The translations under genes and the position numbers were made by a program. Of a stretch of DNA of 64,000 nucleotides, positions 30,051 to 52,220 are shown in pieces. The stretch spans positions 23,435,899 through 23,499,898 of the forward strand of contig OZ316891.1 in assembly GCA_973895155.1 (NCBI GenBank), read 5' to 3'. The number at the start of each line of letters is the position of its first letter. Position 1 is the first letter of the stretch. The stretch is from Marsupella aquatica (lineage: Eukaryota; Plantae; Marchantiophyta). The notes below the pieces were generated by a model. It searched no databases. It saw only the letters and a list, made by a program, of their open reading frames with translations, and was not told the origin of the DNA.

Positions 30051-33000
30051 CCTCCTATCTCTGTCTTGATGCCGGTTAACACTCCCATGGGAATGACCTG
30101 ATACCCATTGGCCATGTTCAACACTCTTCCAGTCATCTTTGGTGTTAGACCCCACCCTTTTGCTGTTGAATCAATCATAATACATACCCCTGATCCTCCA
30201 TCGATGGGTATCCGTAGTAATATTTCTCCTTGAATCATTAATGGTAATGCTGGGGCTCCTTGATCTTCTTCTATCATCAGCACGTCGGATCTGGTTTCTA
30301 CCTTGGGTAATCTTGGCTTGCCGAGAATGGCCTTCCTTAATTGTTTCCAAAAGTATGGGCTATTTTTCAATAGTTGACCTACTGTTGCTGAGACTCTAGA
30401 TTCTAGTATGTCTTTAGCCAGGTCATAGAAGACTATCGACTTCTCTTCTGGCGGTGTCTCTCTATTGGCTTCGACCTGTTTTGTCACGCTGGTTTCCACA
30501 GCTCTTGGATCTTCCGAAGCAAACAACGCTTTTGCTCGTTTCACATCCTTGGCTATGGATTTGGTATTCTCTAGGGTTTCTAATTCTCGCAGTTGTTCCT
30601 TGACACTAGCCGTGATAGATGGGTAGAACAACTTAGGGTGATCTCGATTGAAGTTACTATCCTGTGAAGGATTGGGCTCACTGGTGGGCTCATGGTTTAC
30701 CTATGTTGCCGGCGCCCTTCCTTCTCTTTCCATTGATGTTGACGAAGAGTCGATGTTTTCTTCTTTAACCTTCCCTTTATTTTTGGCCAGCCCATCCCAC
30801 CTTTCCTTCCTTCTGGTGGATCGAGTAGAGACCCGGTAGCAATCATGATCCAAATCCTCTTCTGAAAATGTTGATAGGGCCTCGGCCTCATCATCAGATG
30901 GTCCAAACTCTGCCTCGGCATCCACTTGCCATCCGAGTTTGATGTGGTTGATTTGAACTCCTCCTGGGGTAGTACCTGGCGGCAAGACCTTGACCGGCAA
31001 GAGCTTATGATTTGCGGCCAGTCCTGCCAACCAAGTAGGACATTGTCCTAGCATGTGACCCTCCTATCGGCATCCCATACATAGCTGAGCTGGCTGTCCA
31101 TCACCTTGTTTGCGTGCATTCGGGCATTCTCTAGCAAAATTGTTGGGTATTTACTCTTACGTCTAGGTTAGGTATGACGTGGTTGGTACAACAACGTGGG
31201 TTGGTACAACTACGTGGTTAGGTACAACTACGTGATTAGGTACAACTATGTGGTTAGGTACAACTACGTGATTAGGTACAACTATGTGGTTAGGTACAAC
31301 TACGTGATTAGGTACAACTATGTGGTTAGGTACAACTATGTGGTTAGGTACAACTAAGTTGCACACTATATCATAAGAGGCATGTGTGCTTGGAGAGGTA
31401 GAACCAAGGCTCATTGTTATGGAGCCACTTGAGAGATAGGGAGAGCTTACACTGTGGAGACTCGGTATAGCCGACGGGCTTAGAGTTTAGTAAAGCTCTC
31501 TTGTGTATTCCCGTGGACGTAGCCTCAAGGAGGTGAACCACGTATCTCTTGTGTCGACTATTGTGCGTTGGATGGTTCATGGGCTTGCCGTTGCGATCGT
31601 CGTCTATGCTCAACAAAAATGGCCAGGTTGACCACAATTATAGCATGCCGCAAATCTTTGCACATTTGGCCTAGGAGGTACTAACGGATTCTGAATAATC
31701 CAAGGATAATCTCTCCCGGATTGTTCCTTAATCCTGACCAGAGAGATGCAGGTCGGTTGGATAGGTCTCGTGCTCTGGACAGTCTCATTGATGCCGAAAA
31801 CACTATCAGTGGCATCCCCTAGAAAGTACTCTACTTCTCCCTGACATGGTCTGACCTCAGCCACATGCCGAACATGACTAGTATTAAGTTTAGGACATGT
31901 GTCTTTATGGTGTCCGGTTTTATAACATAAGGCACACCATACAAAGCTATCCTCGAGTACTACTTTCTTCTTGGGCTTTACCTCTGCTATTATAGCCTTA
32001 AGCTGCTCGGTAAGAGCTACAATGTTATCTGGTGTTTTAGCTTCTAGCTTGACTTTCAACTTCCCCCTCCTTCCACCCTTCTTTTTCCAAGATTTTTCTT
32101 CTTCAGAACTAGAAGATGACTCACTCTTGCTACTTCCACTATCCGAGCTTGAGTTATCACTTCTTGACTTCTTAGAATGTTTCTTTTTCTTATCTTTTTT
32201 CTTATGGGGTGATCCTTCCTCCGATGAGGAACTCTCAGACTTGAGCCGTTTTTTCCGGCTTGTGATATTTGCATTAATGTACAATTGAATATCTCTAATT
32301 GCCTCTGCTAAAGTCTCTGGGTTCTCCTTCCTAATTGCAAAACTCATCTTCTGTGGCAAAGCATTCACCAACCATTGAAGTTGCATACCTTCAGATGCAT
32401 TGGTTTTTGTATGTCTTACCAGCTTTTGGAAACATTGCAAGAACTTCCTGAAGGATTTGTTTTCCTTGAACCAAAGTCGTCCCAACTTCAGCACTGCTAG
32501 CTCTGAGGTTCCATTGGGTCAAAACTCCTTAACAAATAGTGTTTTGAAGGTATGCCAGATGGCTTGATCTTCCACATCCAATGCTCTGTACCAAGGCCTA
32601 GCCTCACCCTTGAACAGGTCGGGAAGAATTTGCATCTTGATGGCCGATTTTCCATTTGCTGCAGCGGTTCCCTCAAAGTCATCCAACCATTCATCCAGAT
32701 CCTCATCTCCTCTCCCATGAAATGCCTTGTAATGAATGCACGACCGTTGGCTCAGTCTGGTCCCTGGCCTCTCGTCTGGCCATGCCTCTGGTTCCCCCAT
32801 GTCGGCTGGGGACTCGCTTCTCCTTACCGACTCTTCTTCTAGTATGTCTTCTTCGACGCCACTTTCAGTTTCAGAGCTACCAGCTCTTTCTGCCCCTCTC
32901 AATCGTTGTGTATCATGCCACCCGGCGAGCTGCTGCAGACGAGCTCTCTCTCATTGAATCGCTCTTTCCTCCCTCGGCGTAGGTTCAGTCATTACCTACG

Positions 33001-33193
33001 CTTCTTTCCTAACTTCATATCTCACGGCTTAAGAAATGCCCCCTCCATCTATCGCCAAAAATGTGGTGCATCCCATGGCTCCCTAAACCCAAGAAACCCC
33101 CTGTACAAGCCGATTCCCGCAGGTTTTGCTCTCGGCGAGGCCGGTTCCGCGGCTTAGCGGCATGGGACGCTGCTAAACTCCTTTACTACTATT
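30051..33193 (-). mobile_element. Ty3/gypsy (Tat/Phygy-like) 5' part: LTR end (33062), PBS TGGCGATAG, degenerate gag with Zn knuckles and protease
   Basis: FHGRGDEDLDEWLDDFE, CALCYKTGHHKDTC, CYNCGQPGHF and PIDGGSG. High identity to the plus-strand copy at 35130-38350. Confidence 0.9.
31141..31615 (+). mobile_element. Copia-type solo LTR (475 bp) with an 18-bp tandem array, inserted in a gag Zn knuckle
   Basis: TGTTG...CAACA ends; TSD AAAAT. CCCGTGGACGTAG...GAACCACGTA motif. GGTTAGGTACAACTA(C/T)GT x~10. Confidence 0.92.
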
Positions 33194-34626: not shown

Positions 34627-35607
34627 GTGAGAAGGACGACCAGCTCAACCAGACTTATGCCAAGATGAATAAGATGGAGTCTGAGGGATAAATACCTGGG
34701 CAACAGGGAGTCCAGGGCCTCTTCTGTAACAAGTTTTTAGTTGCACCAGCAGCGCTGGGATCAAGTAGTAAGAGAAGCTCTTGGTTAGTTATACAGTGAC
34801 CCTTGTGTATATTCATGTTTCCTCATGCCTAAGAACTGAATAGAGTTGGCCTCATGGCTTAGTTCGCAGAGCTTGTGTATGAGATGTACTGTTTGTATGG
34901 CAAGTGCATGGTATAACTCAGTCAGAAGGAGTCATTTTGCTATTTGTGTGTCGCATTAACTTGTGTGAAGAGTGCCCACATCAATGAAGGGAAGTAGCAA
35001 GGGAGTGAGAGTTGGATGTGTCGAGCTCAGAGAGGTCTTAGCGGCTTAACCAAACCAATTGGGGATCATTCTGGCGGCGGAATCCAAACATACCTAATGG
35101 AAGACCAGGAGAAAAATACAAGGGAAGGCCTAGAATAGGCCGGCTAAGTATCTCATGACCCAATGAAGGATCTGTCCAGTATATGTGTGTAAAATGTTAA
35201 TAGTAGTAGAAGGAGAGTTAGCAGCGTCCCATGCCGCTAAGCCACGGAAACGGCCTCGCCGAGGATGAAACCTGCGGGAATCGGCTTGAGCAAGGGGGTT
35301 TTCTTGGGTTTGGGGAACCATGGGACGCACCACATTTTTGGCGCTAGATGGAGGGGGCATTTCTTAAGACGTGAGATATGAAGTTAGGAAGGAAGCGTGG
35401 GTAATGACTGAACCTATGCCAAGAGAGGAAAGAGCGATTCAACGGGAGAGAGCTCGTCTGCAGCAGCTCACCGGGTGGCATGATACACAACGACTGAGAG
35501 GGGCAGAAAGAGCTAGTAGCTCTGTAATTGAAAGTGGCATCGAAGAAGACATACCAGAAGAAGAATTGGTAAGGAGAAGTGAGTCTCCAACCGACATGGG
35601 GGAACCA

Positions 35608-35897
35608 GGGTATGGCCCGCGTGACAGTAAACAGGAAACAGGTTTACTGGTACCAGGAAAATTTTTCCTGTTACCAGCAAAAAGTTACTGTTACCAGCAA
35701 AAACAACCATGTCAAAATATTTTCTAAAAATTCTCATTTTCCAAAAAAATTTAAGTTACAACATTTTTTGGCTAGCTTTGGGCGCTAGCAAATAAAATTT
35801 CAAAAAAAAATTTCAAAAAAAATTACCACTCATTTTCCTGTTACCAGTTTCTGTTTTCTATTATTGTTTGTTGTTTCCTATCGTTTATAAATACCCC
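35608..35897. mobile_element. Mutator-like MITE, GGGTA...TACCC family (290 bp)
   Basis: 9-bp TSD GGGGAACCA at 35599-35607 and 35898-35906. The empty site is present in the paralog near 32790. Confidence 0.93.
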
Positions 35898-36076
35898 GGG
35901 GAACCAGAGGCACGGCCAGACGAGAGGCCAGGGACCAGACTGAGCCAATGGTCGCGTATTAATTACAAGGCCTTTCATGGAAGAGGAGATGAGGATCCGG
36001 ACAAATGGTTGGATGACTTTGAAGGAACCACTGCAGCAAATGGAGAATCGGCCATCAAGATGCAAATTCTTCCCGG

Positions 36077-36372
36077 CTCGGGGATTTCACTTCCACAAAA
36101 ATGGCATGTCACGTGCGACAAAGTATAGGGTCATTTTATTGGTTCAAAGGGAAGACTTAAGAATTTTCTGAGAAGAACAATAGGGTCTTTTAAATCCAAT
36201 TTTGAGACTTATAAGAACATTAGGGTCCTTATAACCAAATGTCTGGAATATTCCAAGAATATTCCAACTTTATAGGGGTTGAATTTATTTTTTAATTCTT
36301 ACATTTTAGGGGGTCTGAGGCCTAAAAACGTCACAGGTGATTGGGAGGCATCCGTATAGTGAGACCACTGAG
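36077..36372 (-). mobile_element. MITE with CTCGGGG-type TIRs and 8-bp TSD (296 bp)
   Basis: TSD CTTCCCGG / CTTCCCAG. Ends are homologous to 37765-38092 in the opposite orientation; empty site near 32620. Confidence 0.85.
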
Positions 36373-37764
36373 CTTCCCAGCCTGTTCAAGGATGAGGCTA
36401 GGCCTTGGTATAGAGCATTGGACGTGGAAGATCAAGCCATCTGGAATACTTTCAGATCACTATTTGTCAAGGAGTTTTGACCCATTGGAACTTCAGAGTT
36501 AGCAGTGCTGAAGTTGGGACGACTTTGGTTCAAGGAGAACAAATCTTTCAGGAAGTTCCTGCAACGCTTTCAAAAGCTGGTAAGACGTACCAAGACCAAT
36601 GCATCTTAAGGTATGCAACTTCAATGGTTAGTGAATGCTTTGCCACAGAAGATGAGTTTTGCAATTAGGAAGGAGAATCCAGAGACTTTAGCCGAGGCAA
36701 TTAGAGATATTCAATTATACATTAATGCAGATATCACAAGCCGAAAGAAACAGCTTAAGTTTGAGAGTTCCTCATCGGAGGAAGGATCAACCCATAAGAA
36801 AAACTATAAGAAAAAGAAACATTCTAAGAAGTCAAGAAGTGATAACTCAAGCTCGGATAGTGGAGGTAGCAAGAGTGAGTCATCTTCTAGTTGTGAAGAA
36901 GAAAAAACTAGGAAAAGGAAGGGCAGAAGGAGGGGAAAGATGAAAGTCAAGATAGAGGCTAAAACACCAAATAACATCATAGCCCTTACCGAGCAGCTTA
37001 AGGCTATAATAGCAGAGGTAAAACCGAAGAAGAAGGTAGTACAAGAGGATAGCTATGTATGGTGTGCCTTATGTTATAAAACCGGACACCATAAAGATGC
37101 GTGTCCTAAACTTAATACTAGTCATGTTTGGCATGTGGCTGAGGTCAGACCATGTCAGGGAGAAGTAGAGTACTTTTTAGGGGATGCCGCTGATAGTGTT
37201 TTTGGCATCAGTGAGACTGGAGCACAAGACCTATCCAACAGACCTCCTAGGCCGAATGTGCAAAGATTTGCGGCATGCTATAATTGTGGTCAACCTGGTC
37301 ATTTTGCTAGAGAATGCCCGAATGCACGCAAACAAGGTGATGGACAACCAGCTCAGCTATGTATGGGATGCCGACAGGAGGGCCGCCTGCTAGGACAATG
37401 TCCTACGTGGCTGGCAGGCCTGGCCGCAAATCATAAGCTCTTGCCAGTCAAGGTCTTGCCACCAGGTACTACCCCCGGAGGAGCTCAAATCAACCACATC
37501 AAACTCGGATGGCAAACGGATGCCGAGGCAGAGTTCGGACCATCTGATGATGAGGCCAAGGCCCTATCAACCTTCTCAGAGGAGGATTTGGATCATGATT
37601 GCTACCGGGTCTCTACTCGATCTACCAGAAGGAAGGAAAGGTGGGATCGGCTGGCCAAAAATAAAGGGAAGGATAAGGAAGAAAGAATTGACTCTTCGTC
37701 AACATCAACACAAGGGAAAGGAAAGGCGCCAGCAACACAGGTAAGCCATGAGCCCACTAGTGAG

Positions 37765-38092
37765 CTCGGGGGGGTCACTATATGGAGGGTCATACATCGC
37801 GTGCGACGTTTTAGGGTTTGACCCCCCTAACTTTAAAGTGAAAAATATTTTTTTGCAAAGCCCTTTCTTTCTTAAAATTTTGTCATTTTTTATTAAAAAA
37901 CCCCTAAAAACTTTATAGAAAGTATTTTTTGCAATTAAATAGGCCTATGTGTTCTTTAAAGTCGACCAATCAATAAAACATGCCCTATGTGTTCTTCCAC
38001 CAAACTTTGGAAGTCTTCCGCCACACCCATTTAAATGGGCCTATACTTCGTCGCACGTGATGTGTCACTTCCGTGGAAGTGACCCCCCCGAG
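37765..38092 (+). mobile_element. MITE with perfect 15-bp TIR CTCGGGGGGGTCACT and 8-bp TSD (328 bp)
   Basis: TSD CTAGTGAG at 37757-37764 and 38093-38100; empty site near 30680. Confidence 0.95.
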
Positions 38093-40453
38093 CTAGTGAG
38101 CCCAATCCTTCACAGGATACCAACTTCAATCGAGATCACCCTAAGTTGTTCTACCCCTCTATTACGGCTAGTGTTAAGAAACAATTGCGAGAATTAAAAA
38201 CCCTGGAGAATATTGAAGCCATAGCCAAGGATGTGAAATGAGCAAAAGCGTTGTTTGCTTCGGAGGATCCAATGGCTGTGGAAACCAGCGTGAAAAAACA
38301 GGCCGAAGCCAAGATGAAGACACCGCCAAAAGAGAAGCCGATAGTTCCCTATGCACTACTACATATTGGCCCCTTTTGCGAAGCTTTTTTTTGACGCCGG
38401 GATGGTCTTGCGATGTCATCGACTTCAGATATTTTGTGATCAAACACGCATCACAATAAACCATGCTCACAGGTTCGCAACATGGTGTTGCGAAGCTAAA
38501 TACCTCGCAATTTGTTTGAGATCGGATTGAATTCGCAACTCTTTCAGATACTATTCGTCTCGCAAAGTATTTGTGGATCCGCGACCATCGCGACTGCATT
38601 TGGATCTCTTTTGTTTCATAATTTAGCGATAATAATGTACTCAAATATATATTGTGAACCTATTAGCTTCGCAGAATATTGTGAAGCATAAATAGTCGCA
38701 AGTTACCGAATCCAGTTGATTCGCAAAGTTGAGAACACATTGGCATCACAATTACCGATGGTGTGTTATTCACAAAGTGTTCAGAAGTTGCTTCTTGACA
38801 AGCTTGAAAATGTTTTGCAAAGAGAGTTGTTTGAAAATTTTGTAGAATGGAAATGTTTGAGAGAGTTTCTTTACAAGATGGAGAATGCATGTGTTTAGGT
38901 TACAGCTAGGGTTTTCAAAAAGGTGGCATGCATGAGGATAGCTTTGGAAACAGCTAAGGTTGCATATATAACAGTGAGATGAAATTTCAAAGTCCAATTA
39001 AGTGTTTGTAAAACAAAAGAAGAAAAGTAATATGTTAATATAAATAAAACCATGATAGTTAGTTTAGGGTCAAATTTTGGGCCCACAACAAGTTTTACTA
39101 CTAGTGCATCAAACCTGGTCCTCATCCTCGCCTCCATTTGACACAATAATAACGTCAGGTTTTTCCGAGATAATGGAACGGGACCGTGGCACATACGGTA
39201 TAACAACTGACCACTCTAGGTCTGGTGGGTACGGAATATAGAAACACTGCTCAAGGTGACTTGGGAATGTAAATGGTTCAGATGTTTGCCAATGAGATGG
39301 TTGAAAGCTAGTTGCTGATGTCTTCAGTCGAGTAAACCCACACTCATCAAGAAGTACCATGCGATTATCACCAACCAGGTGAATTTTGAACCACTTACAC
39401 TTGAAGACATACTCTTCAAATTTGGAATCGGCATCATAGGATATGATCAAGATCTCCTCAATCTTCCCATAGTGAGGCACCACATCTCTGATCACATTAG
39501 TGTCATGACGGCTACTTTGTGAATCTTGCATGAACTGCCCTTGAACTCCACAATCAAAAGTTCTTCCCCTCTTCTCATCAAGGTTAGAAATCCTGAAATG
39601 CCTCCCTTGTGTCCACATTGTTGTTATGGTTTGAACAAGTCTTAAAGGACCATGAACAATTGTTCGAACCTCAGGAGTCATATCTGGAAAATGTGATACA
39701 TTCTCACCTTGGGCCACCATAGCATCCAACTGAAGTACTTTCTCCTTCATATACTCAAGGAACTTTGGAAAGATCCTTGGGCGACGACTCTCCCTCTTTG
39801 CATCCTCATAAAACTCTCTCCAATCTTCCATCACATTGCTGTTACTCAACATGAAAGTACTAACCTGTGTCAACTCCACTGCGGTTAGTAAGCGTGTTTT
39901 TTTTGCACCTGTTAAACGGTCCTCCTCCACTTCCCTCTCTTCCATCCAAGTGCGTGGAAAACTAGGATCAATGGTAGCTAAGATGTTACTACAATAAAAC
40001 ATACTCTCAGCTGCCAAGTATCCAGTTGCCATGCTCCCCTCCACTCGTGCACGGTTCCATACATAAGCCTTTAACACGGCCATATACCTTTCCAGCCAAT
40101 ACATCCACCTACAATGCACCGGACCGGCAATGGCAACCTCCCTCACAAGATGAACGAGAAGATGCACCTGACAATCAAAGAAGGAAGGAGGGAGGGCCTT
40201 CTCCAACTTGCATACCACCTCTGCTGCCAATACCTCCATCCGTGGTATCTCTTCTTCATATATTTCCTTTGAGCATATCCATCTCAACAAAGTGCCCTGT
40301 CACGTCGTAGGCTTCGGCCTTAACTCAGACTTCAGCTTAGACGGGCACATCCCTCGTAAATCTGAGGGTTCGGGCAGGAAGGGAAGCACGTAATGCACCT
40401 TATTTTCGTAAACTAGCGCTAAGTGCGCATACTGCTAAATACGAACACCTCCT

Positions 40454-40531
40454 AGGTATGGTTTGTGTTCCGCCGCCGGAACGTACCTTAGTCGATAGCA
40501 GGATCGACCCCGGCTTAAGGGCTTCTAAGCC
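40454..40531 (-). other. Conserved multi-hairpin RNA motif in LTR unit C
   Basis: Minus strand: GGCTT/AAGCC, GTCGAT/ATCGAC, and AGGTA..TTCCG-GCGG-CGGAA..TACCT. Confidence 0.65.
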
Positions 40532-41194
40532 TTCGTGCTGTCCGCCTTCGATCCGGATTCGATGATACAGGTCCTCAACCCGTGCTCGCAACCACTTACC
40601 CGCAGGCTGCACCCTGTGCACGTCTCGGGTAGTGCGTTCTGCCTGGCGCTGCCACCCATATACGAGAAACCCACACACATATGCGCACACATGCATACAA
40701 TCTCGATTTACACGAAGGAAAATGATGGGAAAGGATTTTACTTCAAAGGGAACATATGCGTACACTTAGTTGACACGACAGCCCTGGAATGCACAGGTTC
40801 AAGGCCGAGGGTGCACACTACAACGGAGCCCGGCTCCGCACTCGCCCGACGAGCTTAGTCCTACCCCCTCCCCTTGGTACTCTGTCATTCCCAAAGGTCG
40901 GGACTCCCCGCATGTCCCGCGGATGTCCGACTCTGAAACTAAAAACCCCCCCTGCCTCTACCGAGGGGTGCACTAAATACTAAGAGCCGAGGAACGGGGT
41001 GTCCTCCCGCCGAAGATTCGTTGACTAAGGTCCTAACTAAGCTGACAGTCAGGCCGGAAAACGGTTGTGTCTTATTAGAAGATCCTAATCTACGCAGGCT
41101 GGACAGCAGGGCAGCGCTGCTGTACCTAAGGCAGGTGCCTGTCCCAAGAGCCTGACTAAGCCAATCCTAATCCTAATCTATTCCTACTCCGCCG

Positions 41195-43819
41195 CTAATG
41201 CCTGGCACGCTTGCCAGAGCCGCCCGAATGGGAACGGCCATCCCGCTGCCTTGGAAGCCTGTCATTGTCCGCCTTGAGGAGCTGGACCTGGTCCAGCAGA
41301 GATTTGTTCTCTCGCCTCGCCGCGTCCGTCTCCTCTGCTGCCTCCTGACATGCCTCCTCCAGCTGCTGGGCGTCGCTCGTCAGTTTACTCGCCAGCTGGT
41401 CCTGCTTCTCGGCCTCGGTTTGGAGCCGCGCCATCTCGGCCTGCAGCGTGGCTATCTCCGTCGCGTCCCGCTGGGCTCGCTCCTCGGCCTCCTCCAGGTC
41501 TTTCTGCCAGGTGACAGCTTGTTTCTTCAAACTGTCAATCTGGTTCTGGAGTCGTGTAATCTCGGCCTCGTTCCCGGCTTTGGCCTGTTCGGCTAGGGCG
41601 GGAAGAGCGTACACCTTTGCTAACAACTCATCGGCGGCTGCAACCTTGGGTCGTAGTTGCAGAAGCTCAGCCTCTTGAGCCGCCACTTCGTTCTTTAGGT
41701 ACACGGACTCCACCCGATACCGCTCTATCCTCTGAAGGGCCTCCGACTGGGCCCGACCTGCCTTTACGGCGGCAACCAACTCCTGATTGAAGAAACAGGC
41801 TACCTTCCGGGCCATGAACTCCCCGGTATCCCGGGCAATTTGATGAGAGAAATCTCCCAGAAGCCCGTTCAGAAACGTACCCTGTACGAAGAGTTCCGAG
41901 TGGTCCAAGTTGTGCCTGTCCGGATTTGGGCACGGGCAGACATCAACACGCGCAGGGGCCGGGGCAGTGACGTCCAGCCCTGGGGACATAACGTTGGAAG
42001 GGAATGGAGTGTCCTCCTGCAGCGATGTCCGGTTCTCCGGAATTGCCACCGGCGGGTCCTTGGGAGACCCGGGTTCGGGTAAGACCTCTGCCGTACCAAC
42101 TTCTGTACTTAGCCCGGCTAGTTGGGTCGCATCAACGGTTGCGACAACCGACCCCTCCGGCGCCTCCTCGGTTACGATTACAGCTATTTGTGGAGGTGGG
42201 GTGGGTGAAGCTGGCGTGTCCACTGGACTCCGGGCCTCGGGTTGGGGCCGTCTCTTCAATGCCGGAAAAACCCACCTAGCTGGGACCAGCTTTGTAACGT
42301 TGATGCGGGGAAGGGTTCGTCGATCAAACCGGGCATACCACTCAAGAATGATTTCGATGTGGCTAGCAAAATACGCCTTCCCGCCAATGTACAGCGTCTT
42401 CCTTCGCCGCTCCATCTCTTCATGGAATTTCTTAGCGAAGTACGACGCCCATTTCCTAGGTCGATAGTTCTCGACCTGGATAACCTGGGCGGCGGAGATC
42501 TCCCCCCGGGGTTCCATCATGTGGAGAGCGTACCTCTGGAACTCCAGCCGCTCAGCTATCTCGGGCATGAGGCAGGTCCTCATCACGAACCCGTTGTCTA
42601 CTGATCCCTCTGAGGGAAAACTTGAAGATTGGTACTTGGCCCCCTTGCCCCCGGGAGCCCGTGATTCGACTCGATGGTCACCTTCGGGTAACCCGAAGAT
42701 CATCTTGAGCCGTTCTTCTGTGAGGGACATATTCCTTCCCCGCAGCCGAGTCTGTTGACGTACGTCGTCATAATTCTTGACGAATTCTGTCATGTCCTCC
42801 CCGTAGTACCTGCAAGTGTTCCAGGGGAGAGAGGCGAGGTGCTCAAATCCCTGAGTCTTCAGGTACACCGCATGCTTGGGATGGAGGATGTTGCTGTGAA
42901 CGTTTTCCCCCATGCGATGCATCGTCACCTTGGCTACGGCTACCGTGGCCAACGGTAACCCGGATGCAGTGGCGGATTCCTTCCTCTTCTTTCCCCATGA
43001 CTGACTCGGGGAAGGTGATACTTCCACATCCTCCCGATCGGGCCTGGGGAGTGCCACTGCGGTTGGTAACGGGCCCGGGGCGGCCACGGTCACCATGTTG
43101 TCTGCTCGGGCCGCTCCTGGGGTCAGAGCAGGGGGTGGGGATGATATAGTATCGGCCCCCCGAGCGCTTGTTCCTCTGGGCCGCCTGGTCAAGGGTGGGG
43201 TAGCCTCGTCGTCATCGCTAAGATCCACAGCGTTGATGACGGAGCGTACCTGTGCTGGCTGGGTGATAGGTGGTGGGGTTTGGCTAGGCTGCGGCTGAGG
43301 CTGAGGCTGGGGTTGCATGGGCACGGGTACGGGTACGGCTGAGTTGGTCATGTTGGTTGATGGCCGAGTTCCCATGAAGCTCTGCAGGTGCTGGTAGAAG
43401 TTCTCCGAAGCGAGTGCGGGCGCCCTTGTTGAACGGTTGGTACTGGACTCGCCGTTAATGACAGCCCGAACCTGGGCAGGGATGTGGTCGAAGTGATGTC
43501 GCTGCAGGTCGATTGTACCCGGGATATTGAAGACCTCGTCCGGAAGCTGAAGCAATGCTTCCCAGAACCCGATATATTTGTCTCCGTTGAAGAAGTACCC
43601 AGATACCTCAGCTGGTCGGTAAAGCTCGCTCTGAGACGGGTAGTCAAAGTTAAGGACGTAGTGGTGTCGTCCTGCTAGGCGGATGGCTCTCTCGTATTCG
43701 CGTTCGATCTCGTATCGGCGCGGGTTGGCGTGTTTCAATGAATCGGCCAAGTGCCTTCCGGTAGATAGGAACTGCGTCCAGAATCGAATGGCCGAGCTGG
43801 AGAGGATCGTGTGCGACAT
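41195..43819 (-). CDS. LTR-embedded accessory protein: N-terminal domain, Pro/Gln linker, plant-transposon-type domain (Transposase_32-like), coiled coil
   Basis: Intact 874-aa ORF with TATAAAA ~100 bp upstream (43921-43927). Homolog at 8201-10516. Confidence 0.85.
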   Translation of the reverse strand: MSHTILSSSAIRFWTQFLSTGRHLADSLKHANPRRYEIEREYERAIRLAGRHHYVLNFDYPSQSELYRPAEVSGYFFNGDKYIGFWEALLQLPDEVFNIPGTIDLQRHHFDHIPAQVRAVINGESSTNRSTRAPALASENFYQHLQSFMGTRPSTNMTNSAVPVPVPMQPQPQPQPQPSQTPPPITQPAQVRSVINAVDLSDDDEATPPLTRRPRGTSARGADTISSPPPALTPGAARADNMVTVAAPGPLPTAVALPRPDREDVEVSPSPSQSWGKKRKESATASGLPLATVAVAKVTMHRMGENVHSNILHPKHAVYLKTQGFEHLASLPWNTCRYYGEDMTEFVKNYDDVRQQTRLRGRNMSLTEERLKMIFGLPEGDHRVESRAPGGKGAKYQSSSFPSEGSVDNGFVMRTCLMPEIAERLEFQRYALHMMEPRGEISAAQVIQVENYRPRKWASYFAKKFHEEMERRRKTLYIGGKAYFASHIEIILEWYARFDRRTLPRINVTKLVPARWVFPALKRRPQPEARSPVDTPASPTPPPQIAVIVTEEAPEGSVVATVDATQLAGLSTEVGTAEVLPEPGSPKDPPVAIPENRTSLQEDTPFPSNVMSPGLDVTAPAPARVDVCPCPNPDRHNLDHSELFVQGTFLNGLLGDFSHQIARDTGEFMARKVACFFNQELVAAVKAGRAQSEALQRIERYRVESVYLKNEVAAQEAELLQLRPKVAAADELLAKVYALPALAEQAKAGNEAEITRLQNQIDSLKKQAVTWQKDLEEAEERAQRDATEIATLQAEMARLQTEAEKQDQLASKLTSDAQQLEEACQEAAEETDAARRENKSLLDQVQLLKADNDRLPRQRDGRSHSGGSGKRARH

Positions 43820-43920
43820 TCAGAGGAGATAGTAGTGGCGACCTAGAGAGAACGAGAGAGCTGGGGTCGAAGCTGGCGCGCGGACTGATGGACTGGTGCA
43901 CTACAAAGGGTTGGCTCCCC

Positions 43921-43927
43921 TTTTATA
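43921..43927 (-). promoter_or_regulatory. TATA box of LTR unit C
   Basis: Minus strand GTATAAAAGGGGAGCC; similar CCATAAGAGAGGAGCC at ~7963 in unit A. Confidence 0.55.
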
Positions 43928-46526
43928 CTTTGAGGGCTTGTCGATCCCCGACGTCTCCTCGACGTCCATAGGTTGAACCGCTCACGCTTGTGGTGTACCG
44001 GCCACTCCGCCGGTCTGAGTCAACGTGCGTCAGTGGCCGCTTCCTTAAGTTTGTTATACGGACCCGAGGGAGGGGCCCCTCCACGCTCGTAACCCGGGTG
44101 TGCGAATAGCGACCCGCCGCCAGCCCGAACCTGAAGTCCCCCTTATTGCCTAATGATGTCCTACCCCTAATGATTACCTAAATACTGTCGTTATGCTAAT
44201 AATAGCGGCCTAAGACCCACCTAACGCGCGTGCCGAGCGCAGTTAGACTGAATCACTCATTAACCGCCGTACCGGCGGCGTCACATGCCCAGTGACCAAA
44301 GGGCGTCTTGCACTTCTTCACTCCCCAAACCTATGATTGCCACAGGAAGTATATGTTGTAGTAAACGATGATAGTCATGTGTCTTGAGATACATTGGCCA
44401 TTTATGACTGTCCTCCATCCCAAAAGCCTTACGTAGATTGGCACCATAGCCTGTAGGAAACCGCATCTGCCCTATGCGTTGTCGAAACTCTCTTCTTTCA
44501 CCAACACTCAAAACCCATGGAGCTGAAGGATGATGTTCCATCCCTGTGGATTCATCAACTGTTATCCATACATCTGGATGTCGTTCTAGATCCTGGCATG
44601 CCTCCCTAAAATTAATGTTCTTTTCCCCATAAAAGTGCTTGATCAAAGCCTTCCCAACATTTTCCTCTATATGCATGGGGTCTAACAAGTGATGAATCTT
44701 CAACTCAGGCCAATAGGGCAAAGTGGCCAATATACCCCACCTTGTCAATCCACTACCATCAAATCCCATGGCATCTTCAGGGTCTGCCACCCTATCAGCT
44801 ATGGACTTCCAATACGAAAATGTTGTGCGGTCAAGTATCTCACGCTCATCACCATTGATCATGTCAAAGTCTGAAAACAAAAGGGGGTCAGACCTCATGT
44901 GATGCCCAAGTGGAAGAAACTTGGTATGACCAAGGTAGATTATCTTGTGCAGCCATTTTGAGTACTTGGCCATATCGTGAAGGCTTGGACCACAAGTGGA
45001 GCATGCCTTGTACCCTTGAGTTTGGAACCCAGAAACAAACCCAAACCCTGCTCACAAAATAACATTCTCAATTAGAGTCAAAGGAATTGAAAAGTTCATG
45101 TACATAGAATTAAAGAGGGACTTCCTTCCAAACAAACTTGATCTCCAATACATGAAAAAAATACAAATCCATACCACTCACCTGGATAGTCATGCATGGT
45201 CCACATAATGATTCCCTTCAATTGGAAGACACGTGGTAACCCTCCTGTAGTTGTCCGACCATCATATGCCCATACACCCCCCCATAATTTATGGAGTTCC
45301 CCAACCAAGAGCGCCAAGTAGGTGTCCATGTTTTTTACCTTAGATGGACCTGGGATAATCAATGATAGCAATAAGAATCCCTTTTTCATGGACAACCATG
45401 GGGGAAGGTTGTAATTCATAACAACCACCGGCCAAACCGAAGTAGGGCGCCCTTTCCCTCCAAGGGAGTGTGGGCTTACCCCATCTAATGCCAACCCCAA
45501 CCTCACATGACGAGGGTCACGTGCAAATTCTGGCCATTGTGACTCCACATGCTTGTGAGCAGGGGAATCAACTGGCAACCGCATGACACCGGCCTCTGAT
45601 CGATGTGTCTTATGCCATACCATCAATTCTGCCAAGTCAGAAAATCGGTACATGTGCAACAATCGAGGAATAATAGGAAACCAACGAACAGCTTTTCTAG
45701 GCACCTTTGAGGTCAACATGTTGGTTTCATATCGAGGCTCTTGACAAATTGGACACTCAGTTGCGCTGGCATTGGTCTCATGATAGAGAATGCAGTCATT
45801 CACACAAGCATGAATGATATGGTATTCCATGCCAATGGATGATAGAACCCTCTTTGCCTCCTTCCAAGTTCCTGGCAACACATTTTCACTAGGTAACAAG
45901 AGATCATGGCAAATCGCAAACAAATCCGATAGTAGCGCATTGCTTGCCTTGTGTTTTGCCTGAAGATTCATCAATGCCAAGATGGCAGATAGTCTATTCA
46001 AATGAGCACCCCCATAAATAGGTGTTCTAGCATGTGCCTCAGCTTCTTCCCATTGTTTTTGTCCTTCAGGTGTACGTTGAGGCCTTGGATCATGTGCAAC
46101 ATTTGGTGGAGGGTCTCCTTCATTGGGTGGGACACCTCCTTCACCACCAATGTCTACACCAAACCAATCTGTCATGAAGTCATCCATGGCTGACTCTTGG
46201 TCTTGCATGACCTCATAATCTGTCCGAGGTGCCCCTTCATCTGGACTGTCATTATCATTGTCACTTGATGAGGAATCTGCTGATGATGTTTCCCCGTCTT
46301 GTGGCAAGCCCATTTCTTGATATGTAGCTCTCAACGTCCTTGGCAACATATCTTGACTAGGCCGCACATTCTATAGAAAATACAATAAAGTATTCACAAT
46401 GAAATTAACGCCAAATATAGTAGTGCTCGAAACATATTATTAACAATATAAAAAGAACATGTCATTACAAAACATACGTTCACATACGATGAACGTATAA
46501 TACATGTCCCTAAAGTAATCCTAATC

Positions 46527-47335
46527 TCATTCATAATGTGTAAACAACTCCTCTCCAACCAGAATGGTCCTATTAGCTACAACTAGACAATGGTCATGAT
46601 GATATCTCTGCCCATAAGGGGTTGGAGGGGGACCATCAACAAAAACCCATTCACAGTTTTTCCTACGCTTAGGCCGGGTCCCCACAGTACTGTTGATGAA
46701 ACCGGCAATATTCCCACTACGGATGGGATCACCATCAATTATACGCTGGTCACAATACTTTCTGGTGCAACCATCAAAAGTATCCATGTCCAATGCATAA
46801 GTCTTCCACTCATGGTGTTGAACAAGGATCATGTTCCAATGTCTCCTCTTGTAAATGGGTCCACCATACGGGAACAACGTTGGTCCATCTGAAGAGCGCC
46901 CTTTTCCACCCATATCATCCACAATAATGTCCTGACAAGAGAAAATCCCATACCCATGCCTCTCCCCTAGGGTCGAACTCTTGACAACCCAACGTCTTCC
47001 CCAAACTTCTATCTCCTCACCATAGGTTATATCACATGGCAAACCAAGGCACTCCGGATTCCAATCCTTTATGATAGGAACACACTTCCCTGTGAAGGTA
47101 CAAGGGCCCCATCTACCATCAACCCTACAAGTGTACTGATCCACTTCCCCTCTAGGCTGTCTTTTTGACTTTTTTTCCCTCTTGTAACAATACCATCACC
47201 CTTAATTGTCCCAACACTACCTTGCCCTGCTGCCACTAAACGAAAAGCTTGTGAAAGTGCCGAGCCTATAGCATCTAGAACTCCTTGTGAGGGAACATAG
47301 GGTGTTGGTGTAGTGGGTGTAGGCCTACTGGATAC
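46527..47335 (-). pseudogene. SET-domain (lysine methyltransferase-like) exon inside the CACTA transposase gene; apparent 1-nt frameshift in an A7 run near 47173
   Basis: VKSSTLG..GYGIF..QDI, PYGG, IDG.P..GNIAGFINS, and LVVANRTILVGEELFTHY. Phase-0 acceptor TTCCTATAG at 47336. Confidence 0.8.
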
Positions 47336-48114
47336 CTATAGGAAGAAATGGAACCAAGTGAGTGTGATGAACCTCCCAAATTTTATTTTATGCTACCTAG
47401 CAAGATTTACAAAATAAAATGGAAATCACAGTAAGTTTACAACTCACCATACGGGATGAAGAAGCTCCCGGTGTAAGACCTCGATGTTGGCCATATCGAG
47501 CAATGTGCTCCGCACATACATATGACTTTTGGACAACCATCCCCACACATTTTTTACAACCACAAAGTTGGCGTGGTGGACCACTAGGTCGACGTACGGT
47601 TGGTTCAGGTTGAGGAGGAGGATGACTTTCTTCATCGGAAGAGGAATCTGATGTGGTGGAAGTTGTAGAGGATGAAGACATCTGACAAGTATAGCAATTG
47701 GAAGGCGATTAGTAAAAACTTCACCAAAACCATCATTGATAATCCCTACCTAAACATATTAAAAAGAATTGACAGAAAAATACCTTTATGAGACCCGGGC
47801 TTAGCAATGCCTTGACGGATCTTGTGGCTCAAATTTCATGAACCAAATCTGGAAGGAGGGGAAAATCTGCCAATATACAATGAATTAAGCCATGCCTTAT
47901 GGTGAACCAGAAAAAAAGGATGATAGATTGTAACCCCTCCATATTTACAGCAATGACTAGAAATGCATGAGAAAATGTTATACCTTTCAGATGCCCGGGC
48001 TCTCGCAAGGCATTATCATGCATTAGCCAAAACTTTAAAAAACATGGGGAAGTGCCCTACAACGCCAAAGAGTTTTCCTCTCCATGTTAATGAGATAGAC
48101 AAAGAAATATAAGT

Positions 48115-48900
48115 AACCCAAACCCTACCCTAAACCCAAACCATGAAATGAAACCCTTCATTAAAACCTAACCCAAATCCCTCAATCACCCTAAACCCTT
48201 ACCCTTATCCTAACCAATACCCAAATCCCTCATTAAAAATTCAAACCTTTACCCTAAACCCAAACCATGAAATGAAACCCTTCATTAAAACCTAACCCAA
48301 ATCCCTCAAGCACCCTAAACCCTTACCCTTATCCTAACCAATACCCAAATCCCTCATTAAAATTTCAAACCTTTACCCTAAACCCAACCCAAATCCCCCA
48401 ATTACATATAAAACTCTTACCCTATCTACACCTTACTTTACCTATATAGGCCAACCCCCACCCCTATAGTTATTCTAAACTTCACCCTAACCCCTAAATT
48501 GAGGCCCTTTTTTAAAACTTAAGCAAAAATTGTACCCCCTCAATTAGAACCAAATCCAACCCTATATCATGTTACACCCCAACCCAAACACTTACATTAG
48601 AAACCCAACCCCTTTAAAAAAACCACAATTAAACCCCCCAACTAAAAACCAAACCCAATCCCTTTAAAAAACAACCACAATTCAACCCCTCAACTAAAAC
48701 CAAACCCAACCCCTGTAATTCCTCACAACCTAATGCAAACCTCTACCTTAAACCCTAAGCCAAACCCATTAATTTAAACCCAACCCTTTTATTCCAACCT
48801 AACCCAAGTTTTAACCCCCTTAATTAAACCAAATACTCCTAGATTAAAACCAAATATAAACCTAACCTTTAATTAAACCCAAACCTTTGTTAACTTATAT
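48115..48900. repeat. C/A-rich low-complexity region with AAACCC(TA) motifs and a ~125-bp direct repeat
   Basis: 48128-48250 resembles 48251-48385; lies between the divergent CACTA genes. Confidence 0.8.
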
Positions 48901-49384
48901 TCTAGTTATCCTTACAACCCAAACATCCATTGACACCCCTTCCATGTTAACTTATGGGCACTTAACATACCTTAAATGTCGTTTGACAAACCTTAATAGC
49001 CGTTTGACACCCCAAAGTGTTTTCCAACCCTAAACCGATAAGACCTGCCTCGCAAATTATTTCACAAGTTAGAGAATATTTTTGCGAACCTACGACCTTC
49101 GCACTTGCTTCGCAAAAACAGAGGCCGAGAACGATTTTTTGGGTCTTCTGCGGGTTGCGATGGCTTTGCGAAGGGAATAGATTCGGAAGTGCCTCGCAAG
49201 TTGCGAGACTATTTGCGAGGGCACGGGCTTCGCAGTTTCCCATGTGTATGTCATCGCAAACCCGTTTTTGAACGGCGTAAACATCGGTGGGAGCTCGCAT
49301 TCGGGCTCATTTCAGTTTTTGAGCGAGACGAGAAGGGCCGGGCCGCGCGCAACAGTACGAGGGAGACTGTGAGAGAGGGGAGCT

Positions 49385-51431
49385 ATGGCTACCGGTGAGG
49401 GGAGTGGAGGGCAAGGTGGTAGTGGTAGTGGTAGTGGCAATGGGGGAAATCCAGAGAAAGAGAAGAATGCCTGGGCAGACTTAGTGGCCCAACATCTCAG
49501 TGCTGCACAATTGGGAGAAGTGAATCTCAATTCTCCAGCAGGGCTTGCCTCTTTGAGTGCCATTCTTGGACAGGTTTTGCAAACTGGGATTGTAGCAGGA
49601 CAAGCTACTAGAGAGGGGGAGGAGAGGGCCGCAGCTGAAGAGAAGGCTAGAGAGAAAAAAAGGAAGAGAGAGGAAAGAACTAAGTCGGGAGTTGCCTCTC
49701 CTCAAGCCCTAGAGAAGCAGAAGAGAAGAGAGGAGAGAGATTCAATTCGAAAACAGAGGGAGGAGCAACGTCAGAAAGAGGAAGCAAGAAAAAAACTTCC
49801 ATTCATTGCCTTGGAGACGAGTGGGACTCCAACTGAGCTAGCATATGCAGGGGCTAAGAGCACAATCAAGCAAATTATCACAAGCAATTTCTCACGAGGC
49901 ATCCAGTGGGGGAAGATTGAGAAGGCAGAGCGAAAGAGGGTCATCAACCAAATCAAGGATGCATTTCGCAATGGGCCTGACATAGATGAGCAATGGTTGG
50001 CAGATAAGATTTCAAATTCTATGTCTCAAATGCGATACCATGACAGGATGAAGATTAGAGCCCACCTGAAAGACTTGAGATCATACAGGAACTTGCGCAG
50101 ACCCCTCCACTTCACCGAGGACATCTGGAATTCGTTTTACAAGATTGAGGTGCAAATTAAGGCAGCTCACGAGTTGGAAGAGTGGAAGGGCAATCTAGAT
50201 CGAGCCTTGAAAGCAAAGGAGGCCGGGAAGCTCCCCCCTGACCACGACCTGAAGCCACTTGAGCAGAAGGTAGCTGAGATGCAGAAGGTGGCCAACCAGG
50301 AGGGAAAGCCACCCAAGCGTTTCACAGATGCAGCCAAACGAGTGAAATCCACCCCCAATCCAGTCCACAAGTTGGGTCAAGGCGGGCTCCCCGGCCTCAA
50401 GTCACACTTTGTGAGTGCCTCTTGCTCCTCCCTAACCTCTCTATTCCTTTCAGAGTTGTGCAATGCAAGTGAATGACATCCCCGAAGGTTCTTGCTGTTG
50501 TGCATGCTTGCTTGGTTACTAGTTTAGGGCAACTCTGACACTTAGAATTTCTGGCAAATTTTTAAAAACTCTCGGGAACACAGTTTGCGAAGGTGTTGTG
50601 ATGCGTATTTGTTCGCAAACCCCTCGCAAAGTCTATCATAGACTTTTTCCATTTCAATTTTCCGATGCCTTTGCGAACAAATGCGCATCGCAAACTCCAT
50701 TGCAACGCCTTCGCAAAAAAAGGTGGTTCGCAAGTTGCTATGCTTATAGGTTCACAAATTTGAATTTTAAAATTTTTTTGGGTCATGTTTAGTAGTTGAG
50801 GATTTAGGCGTCACTTGTGGCTATAGGGTATGCTTAAGGGCAAATTTAACCAATTTTAATTGGTTTTATGCATGGCAGTATCGGAGGTACAAAAGGAAGA
50901 TATCAAAAAAGCATATTGAGGTGGCGATAGAGCATGGACGAAAGTACCTCTTTGCGATGGTAGATGCCGAGTTGGCTACTGTAAGTGTCTAAGTGTGAAC
51001 CATATGATTAGCATGCGAACATTGTGAGTGACCCTTTATGTCTTGCGGAAACTAATGATATGTAATGGATGCAGGATTCGGATGAGCCTGAGGGGTCGGG
51101 TGCTGATGTGACCAGTAGTGATGACGATGAGGGGGCTACTCCTGGTACTAGTGGTGCTCGGGGGGGGAGTAGTCGTGAGGTAGGTTCTTCCCACCGTGGT
51201 AGTGGTGGTAGTCATGTGTCATCAGCACACGTTGATGACCAGGGGGAGGAGGAGGACCCTGAGGATGAGGAGGAGGAACAGGAGGGGCAGGAGGAGCCAG
51301 AGGAGCAGCAGGAGCAGGAGCAGGAGCGCCGACGGCCATCACACACCCGTCACCAACAGGATCCCCGGAAGGATAAGGGCAAGAAGCCAGCCAAGAATCC
51401 AACCAAGAGGAGCCGCAAGAGCCCATTCTAG
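49385..51431 (+). CDS. CACTA second gene (TnpA/Ptta-like); 3 exons 49385-50410, 50879-50980, 51075-51431
   Basis: Phase-0 GT-AG introns. HKLGQGG motif reminiscent of Transposase_24. Acidic tail; frame open after splicing. Confidence 0.7.
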
Positions 51432-52220
51432 TTATTTTGTAGAGATACATGCATGAGAGTGACTTGTCATGCCGGAGCTTAGGGTAGGAAGAGGCAGCAT
51501 AGGTTTAGAAGGGCGGACCTAGCATCAGATATTTCCCCCCTCTTGTCCATGTATAGGGTTCTTTGAAGCCCTATCATTTTGTTCATGCTTTTCCATTTTA
51601 TAAAACAACAATTTTGCCTTCCACATTGGGTTCCAAGGAAAACCCCTCGCAAATAATGTATTGAATCCTGTGTGATCATAATTTTGCGAACCCTTTAAGA
51701 AATCATTCCCATCGCACAATATTAACCCCAAGGCGTCGCACTTTTTGAGTCAATTAACTTCAGAACTTCAGATCCAAATATGTCGGGTTTTTTGTGATAC
51801 TTCTAGGATCGCACTTTCCTAATCGCAACCGTTCACAAACTTCTGAAATCACCGGTATCGCTCTTTGTCATACAATCCCCATCAAAACAATTGAACCAGT
51901 ATCAATCGCAAATATGATGCGATGGTAAATCCGTCTCAAATATTGATGCCCGCACGGGACGTGTGCGTGTATGTTTGCGAACCTTATGCGACGTATAATG
52001 GATCGCAGAAGTATTGAATATTGTGAACCTCTCAGCTTCTCAGTTTGCCATGATGTTGCGATGCCGTTGCGATGGTCCGCGTGCGAAGTTATTAGGTTCG
52101 CAAAGTGCGAAGGGGGTGCGATGCGCGTATGTTCGCAATAGCCAGAATTATGAAAATCAGGGGCTTGTTAGTTGCGATGAGATTGTCTTCGCAAAACCGG
52201 CCGATAGTGTTGTAGTGATG

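Follow-up and report, generated by a model that had tools for sequence, protein, structure and literature searches.

A CACTA transposon family of mosses and liverworts with a SET-domain exon behind the first exon of its transposase gene

A 64,000-nt stretch of the genome of the liverwort Marsupella aquatica (GenBank assembly GCA_973895155.1, contig OZ316891.1, positions 23,435,899 to 23,499,898 of the forward strand; hereafter the window, with positions counted from its first letter) contains a CACTA/EnSpm DNA transposon at 38354-52217 (minus strand, 13,864 bp with a nested insertion counted in). In its transposase gene, a first coding exon with a zinc-type motif is followed by an exon coding for a SET domain and then by the exons of the transposase; in the moss and liverwort family to which the element belongs, this one first exon is very probably spliced either to the SET exon or to the transposase. 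The copy in the window is a complete 13.9-kb CACTA element, dead in both products because of a frameshift, a premature stop and the nested insertion.

Gene structure at the locus

The first coding exon (47448-47681, minus strand, 234 nt, 78 aa), common to both products, carries a zinc-type CxCxxC...H motif, reading CGCKKC...H, and ends at a phase-0 donor, GTGAGT; its match to PF13963 is weak (16.7 bits, E 0.0086, cut-off 27.7). Two phase-0 acceptors follow: TTCCTATAG at 47336 leads to the SET exon across a short intron (47336-47447, minus strand, 112 nt; 117 nt in the related locus L004), and TTCTATAG at 46371 leads to the transposase. An earlier note on this DNA, made from the letters alone, had described the exon and its zinc motif, both acceptors and a SET domain downstream, and all of these were found where it had put them.

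The SET exon (46521-47335, minus strand) encodes a helix, a variable linker, an N-terminal extension and the SET domain, and runs to the stop codon of the family; in the window it is broken. Its frame at 47195-46527 matches PF00856 above the Pfam cut-off (25.6 bits against 22.4, E 1.7e-5), and the predicted fold of a homolog agrees. One base was lost in the interval 47160-47195 (minus strand), where relatives are in frame and where the A7 run at 47170-47176 is the likely place; the frame offset of 2 means a loss of one base (or a gain of two), and the slip lies somewhere from the in-frame stop at 47198-47196 to about 47160 and cannot be placed more closely, since the linker is hypervariable. 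The earlier note had named a 1-nt slip in this A7 run; the broken frame and the run stand, but its expectation of A6 in intact copies was wrong, as the frame of the relatives matches A8. It was right that the terminal stop replaces a Trp codon: the premature TGA at 46527-46529 (minus strand), two codons ahead of the family's stop, is TGG in relatives, whose C-terminus reads YEWD, YEWN or YEWS.

Between the SET stop and the transposase lies a non-coding spacer (46371-46520, minus strand), which ends in the second acceptor; the TAG before AAT is kept in 19 of 20 loci and the interior has diverged. A separate intron within the spacer was rejected, as the GTATGT donors behind the SET stop of the window are not conserved in relatives, and related loci contain no conserved donor between the SET stop and the second acceptor. 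Use of the near acceptor gives a product of about 345 aa with the zinc motif, linker and SET domain; use of the far one gives the usual TnpD architecture.

The transposase is of the TnpD type (PF02992, DUF4218 and DUF4216), and the nearest long proteins are plant En/Spm transposases. Exon 2 (45182-46370, minus strand; PF02992, E 1.6e-38) is separated by an intron at 45181-45048, read from the sequence, from exon 3, which the nested insertion divides into a piece ahead of it (44286-45047, minus strand; PF02992, open frame) and a piece beyond it (39109-40292, minus strand; DUF4218, PF13960, E 1.8e-33; DUF4216, PF13952, E 2e-6). A start of the transposase at an internal Met (MLP) is disfavoured, because conservation begins at the acceptor and the junction was observed (see below). 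Among the long proteins found, there was no full-length annotated protein of the family that joins exon 1 to the transposase. In six related loci (L002, L012, L013, L024, L029, L030), exon 3 contains an additional gap of some 145-155 nt (region of 44448 in the window), probably an intron, which the window copy does not have.

Relatives and conservation of the architecture

A search with the SET frame returned 44 proteins among 64 candidates, and the full HMMER scan gave 90 matches. The proteins closest to the SET exon were P0001 from Calypogeia fissa (75% identity) and P0005 from Sphagnum jensenii (68%), both annotated with exon 1 and SET joined in frame; the cluster of P0005 has 360 members, with at least five Sphagnum species among the 15 members listed. 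Annotated zinc-plus-SET proteins occur in Calypogeia and in several Sphagnum species. In a quick tree of 57 rows, built without host SET classes, the window copy fell into a clade of 13 rows (support 99) with Calypogeia and Sphagnum proteins, nearest to P0001. As judged from its sequence, the window copy represents a diverged family (dS, the synonymous divergence, above 1.1) with a Calypogeia protein as its nearest relative.

Among 45 relatives scanned for domains, 43 had SET or transposase domains only or no match, two of these with an additional marginal match of unknown function, and the other two were unrelated repeat proteins. No close host SET gene was found among the scanned relatives, and solved eukaryotic SET domains matched the family profile with E 0.007 or worse; near-identity to a host gene exon, which the earlier note had named as evidence against its proposal, was therefore not encountered.

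Those of the distant members that carry an organism name, a minority, belong to Riccia sorocarpa and Calypogeia. Riccia relatives of about 40% identity keep the zinc motif or have a transposase adjoining. In the Riccia models P0158 and P0222, and also in P0196, SET is joined in frame to the transposase; these unverified models are probably prediction artefacts, a true three-part fusion being less likely. One member of a distant cluster is labelled as a protein of a bacterial metagenome-assembled genome, on a 2.3-kb contig, a label that is unverified. A distant multicopy SET group (P0352-P0410, 26-41% identity, IDGRP..GNIAGFINST) lies on metagenome contigs of up to 47 kb.

The architecture was counted in 41 metagenome loci, which were picked for holding SET, so that the share of family copies without SET is not derivable from them. 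Transposase exon 2 follows the end of SET in 23 of 23 loci with at least 250 nt downstream, exon 1 precedes SET in 16 of 17 loci with at least 450 nt upstream, and exon 1, the transposase or both stand beside SET in 32 of the 41. The SET segment, whose absence from other copies the earlier note had named as evidence against its proposal, is present in all 23 informative loci, in the order exon 1, SET and transposase. Intron interiors have diverged from those of the window while the splice sites are kept: of the loci shown, all 14 retain the GT of the exon 1 donor and 12 of 14 the SET acceptor, and the transposase acceptor persists in 19 of 20.

Selection on the SET exon

Ratios of nonsynonymous to synonymous substitution (dN/dS, or pN/pS where uncorrected) were obtained by pairwise counting with Jukes-Cantor correction for dN/dS; the pairs are not independent. 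For the SET core of the window against 12 loci, dN/dS was 0.148-0.186 at dS 1.10-1.36, with a pN/pS of 0.28 (bootstrap 0.20-0.36) in one pair; for the transposase against four loci, dN/dS was 0.117-0.135 at dS 1.20-1.25. The equal dS indicates that the SET and transposase exons diverged as one unit, and the substitution pattern indicates that the SET exon is under purifying selection, with a dN/dS well below 1 as had been anticipated. A rough count of stops and slips across related loci gave 0.53 per 100 codons in SET against 0.70-1.37 in the transposase; lesions are not denser in SET.

These values bear on the view that SET is no more than a piece of a host gene carried along passively, or an accidental neighbour, of no use to the element. 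The SET exon of the window is broken twice, and neither exon 1 nor the transposase is seen in nine of the 41 loci, as such a view would have it; yet eight of the nine are truncated SET pieces or short contigs that end too soon, and the ninth is a weak 33-residue match. With the position and splice sites fixed, no close host gene found, and SET constrained (dN/dS 0.15-0.19, transposase 0.12-0.14) at the same dS as the transposase, passive capture is largely refuted and retains hardly any credibility. The earlier opinion that SET is integrated into the gene structure is supported by conservation, purifying selection and the junctions described next.

Splice junctions in probable RNA of a relative

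Sequencing runs were picked by related locus, and eight of 23 listed runs were compared, on locus L004 or L006. On L004, three runs (X14, X15, X16) contained the joints 2152>2270 and 2152>3217, both GT..AG and both starting from the exon 1 donor, which skip 117 nt to SET and 1064 nt to the transposase, respectively. The contig depth of the two joints in X14, X15 and X16 was similar (42.5, 40 and 27.7 for the former; 29, 56.4 and 65.6 for the latter). On L006, run X13 showed both junctions as loose ends at the exact sites. Both junctions were therefore present in four of four probable RNA runs (X13-X16) of one relative, which accords, at the level of contigs, with the junctions of both isoforms that the earlier note had asked for. 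The spliced junction words occurred in none of the 41 DNA loci, and neither junction was found among the 900 contigs compared of run X23, whose even cover of introns is DNA-like.

In X14-X16, SET-containing contigs continue across the second acceptor, and contigs cannot show where messages end; splicing here seems to select one of two acceptors, and the SET message to read on into transposase sequence. In probable RNA contigs, exon 1 is joined to two others (264-641 and 1747-1789 of L004), one of them antisense to the second gene of the element, the other small and non-coding. A further upstream RNA exon was found in none of the 41 loci.

SET fold and catalytic motifs

The homolog P0003 (73% identical) has a predicted SET fold with a mean predicted local distance difference test (pLDDT) value of 92.8. 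Its model matched solved structures (Foldseek, VIA-align) with Z up to 12.2 and a root-mean-square deviation of 2.6 over 124 residues; Set1, EZH2, SET7/9, ASH1L, SET8 and LegAS4 were tied at Z 11-12. Fold matches in BFVD were generic (11-25% identity where E was 0.001 or lower) and tell neither for nor against a viral origin. A PDB search with a single SET sequence yielded nothing; a search with the family profile did match, with LegAS4, which was solved with a histone H3 peptide, as the best solved structure (E 3e-5). Pre-SET, AWS, PHD and SRA domains gave no match among the 45 scanned proteins.

The GxG, YxG and ELxxxY motifs, the last with the catalytic Tyr, and the NH dipeptide have established roles in SET enzymes. 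In 64 aligned members, the two Gly of GxG are kept in 60 and 61, the Tyr of YxG in 47 (Phe in 16), the Asn of motif III in 57, a second Asn in 64, and the Glu and Tyr of ELxxxY in 56 and 53 (seven gaps at the Tyr). Members of only 24-30% identity still have the GxG on the S-adenosylmethionine side, the Asn and the catalytic Tyr. The His of the canonical NH motif is found in none of the 64, and 61 have Ser in its place. LegAS4 also lacks this His (YINFS), which softens the objection without removing it: the domain is less of a canonical SET, and no less apt to work like one. A small residue at the SET switch position presumably suggests, by the general rules for SET enzymes, the transfer of more than one methyl group per lysine. 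The SET product is probably catalytically active.

A pseudo-enzyme would read the same motifs differently: the SET protein would bind a histone tail or methyl-lysine, or act as a decoy for partners of host methyltransferases, and the near acceptor would also throttle transposase output. The loss of the motif His in all 64 members and the Phe in 16 of 64 at YxG would fit, as would the SET contigs that cross the second acceptor in X14-X16, since each choice of the near acceptor then costs a transposase message. The retention of GxG, Asn and catalytic Tyr at such low identity, and the same missing His in LegAS4, speak for an enzyme and make the pseudo-enzyme rather improbable.

An active enzyme could also have a non-histone substrate, such as the transposase, the second gene product or a host silencing protein, so that the same gene structure would tune transposition after translation. 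SET7/9, which has non-histone substrates, its entries including peptides of the estrogen receptor and TAF10, and SET8 share the top rank among the fold matches. A common first exon might bring the SET protein into contact with the transposase, and there is no reader domain among the scanned proteins. On the other side, the best profile match, LegAS4, was solved with a histone peptide, and the published SET genes of transposons are read as histone methyltransferases in the available passages of the sources (PMC12730594; bioRxiv 10.1101/2025.02.11.637652). Such a substrate appears unlikely, though worth keeping in mind.

Alternatively, the enzyme could be active on histones and repressive, by which the element would dampen itself or silence host defence genes. 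The tied fold matches include EZH2, G9a and ATXR5, and TnpA of Spm is described in the available part of its source as a regulator that acts both positively and negatively (PMC2613891). The high copy number in Sphagnum (the cluster of 360) and the joint expression of both isoforms point the other way, neither being decisive; a repressive role is considered very unlikely.

Interpretation and significance

That one exon 1 is joined to SET or to the transposase in a conserved architecture is highly probable. For what the SET protein does, the preferred reading is that the shared zinc module, or the product of the second gene, would bring it to the chromatin of the element, where it would write a mark that works against silencing by the host or makes the ends accessible for excision. 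The whole chain, from an active lysine methyltransferase to its action on histones in favour of the element, is held tentatively, at slightly under an even chance. In its boldest form, an ancient bryophyte CACTA lineage would swap the catalytic body of its transposase for SET behind the same zinc module and so aim a writer at its own copies. It would be the first land-plant transposon with a self-targeted histone methyltransferase, and its SET lineage would have no close relative in the host; this form is doubtful.

Several points weigh against the preferred reading. The ties among the fold matches mean that no mark can be predicted; to these is added the missing motif His. The PF13963 match of exon 1 is below the cut-off, and DNA or chromatin binding by the zinc module is putative. 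The SET exon of the window carries two lesions, and the transposase frames of the window contain neither stop nor slip. Among close copies, pN/pS was 0.73 in SET and 0.55 in the transposase; decaying insertions would show such values, though SET is slightly worse. As to the junctions, X13-X16 come from one organism in one year, are RNA by the guess of the tool, and were seen as contigs only, with joint sides of 19-29 letters; the two isoforms may stem from different copies. No exon 1 junction was found in any of the three metatranscriptomes X1, X2 and X5, which cover the introns without it and so look like carried-over DNA or unspliced RNA.

The family offers a compact (about 345 aa), expressed, multicopy land-plant example, with intact natural copies in Sphagnum and liverworts and with tractable relatives, and a simple deletion of the shared first exon would put the targeting idea to the test. 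If the SET protein does write a histone mark on the element's own copies, it would be a direct enzymatic counter to host silencing and possibly a sequence-aimed epigenetic tool. Many gene models of Sphagnum called 'SET domain-containing' are explained as transposon products.

Ends of the element and neighbouring features

The element is bounded by CACTAC termini at 38354 and 52217, where terminal inverted repeats that begin with CACTA (CACTACTACATAT and CACTACAACACTA) are flanked on both sides by a 3-bp target-site duplication, ATG; CACTACAAC likewise opens five related loci. At a paralogous empty site (30424-30426), both flanks of the element are contiguous around a single ATG, which shows a real insertion event. 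The repeated subterminal motif TTCGCAA (38376-52194, no strand assigned) occurs in 21 copies in the window, 19 of them within the element, where they gather near its two termini and to either side of the second gene. A gag-like retroelement stretch is present in two inverted copies (30052-33101 and 35295-38353, about 92% identical), in one of which the CACTA element is inserted.

The nested insertion (40298-44285, minus strand, 3,988 bp, with TG...CA ends and a 5-bp duplication, GGGCA) splits the transposase and stands outside the system; related loci are continuous at its position. It resembles a very long solo long terminal repeat and holds an intact frame of 874 aa (43819-41195), whose Pfam matches are to coiled-coil only. 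The defined ends of the element and this 4-kb insertion had been overlooked in the earlier note.

A divergent second gene (49382-50476, plus strand), with a probable further exon at 51066-51431, is found at the same position in nine loci with 45-60% identity and appears to be spliced on its own strand in X14-X16 (joint 26>299 on L004). Pfam and PDB searches with it gave low-complexity matches only; it may have a TnpA-like role. The region between the two divergent genes (48100-48900) is filled with degenerate telomere-like repeats (TTTAGGG/TTTGGG type, minus strand).

Comparison with known systems

SETMAR is a single-copy domesticated host gene with SET and a mariner transposase in one chain. 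The present family is similar to it in that SET and transposase sequences are joined by splicing; here, however, SET resides in a multicopy mobile element and is an alternative to the catalytic domain.

Full-text literature searches, which do not reach subscription journals or Repbase, turned up no description of a CACTA element of land plants with a shared-exon SET, or of a bryophyte CACTA with a SET exon; the available passages of PMC11982613 likewise have no bearing on the subject. Among other DNA transposons that encode SET-domain lysine methyltransferase-like proteins, HarbingerS and oomycete MuDR SET genes are cited in PMC12730594 and Helitron SET captures in a Bostrychia preprint (bioRxiv 10.1101/2025.02.11.637652), the supplements of which could list more SET-bearing elements. 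As far as the available passages describe them, these belong to other superfamilies and hosts and are accessory genes, not splice alternatives of the transposase; no assay of a transposon-borne SET protein is given in the passages on the algal, oomycete and other cases. PAG2 of Plavaka (EnSpm/CACTA superfamily) in red algae is, in the part of the preprint available, a separate accessory gene with SET fused to an N6-adenine methylase (bioRxiv 10.1101/2025.02.11.637652). Likened by this description only, both are DNA transposons of the CACTA superfamily that have carried SET (PF00856) over long evolutionary time; in the present family, unlike PAG2, SET is an exon inside the transposase gene of a land-plant element of the TnpD type.

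VANC proteins of Arabidopsis VANDAL elements are described in the passages available as anti-silencing proteins that induce hypomethylation (PMC12730594; bioRxiv 10.1101/2025.02.11.637652). The likeness is that of an element-encoded factor that alters the element's own epigenetic state, as shown for VANC and proposed here; VANC is not a SET protein, and hypomethylation is a feature of VANC.

In maize En/Spm, itself a CACTA element, tnpA and tnpD are derived from one alternatively spliced unit, according to the part of the source available (PMC2613891). The present element shares with En/Spm the CACTA ends, the 3-bp duplication, a repeated subterminal motif, a tnp2-type transposase and two products by alternative splicing. 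It differs in that the alternative product is a SET-fold protein built on the first coding exon of the transposase, and in that the second gene is divergent and separate.

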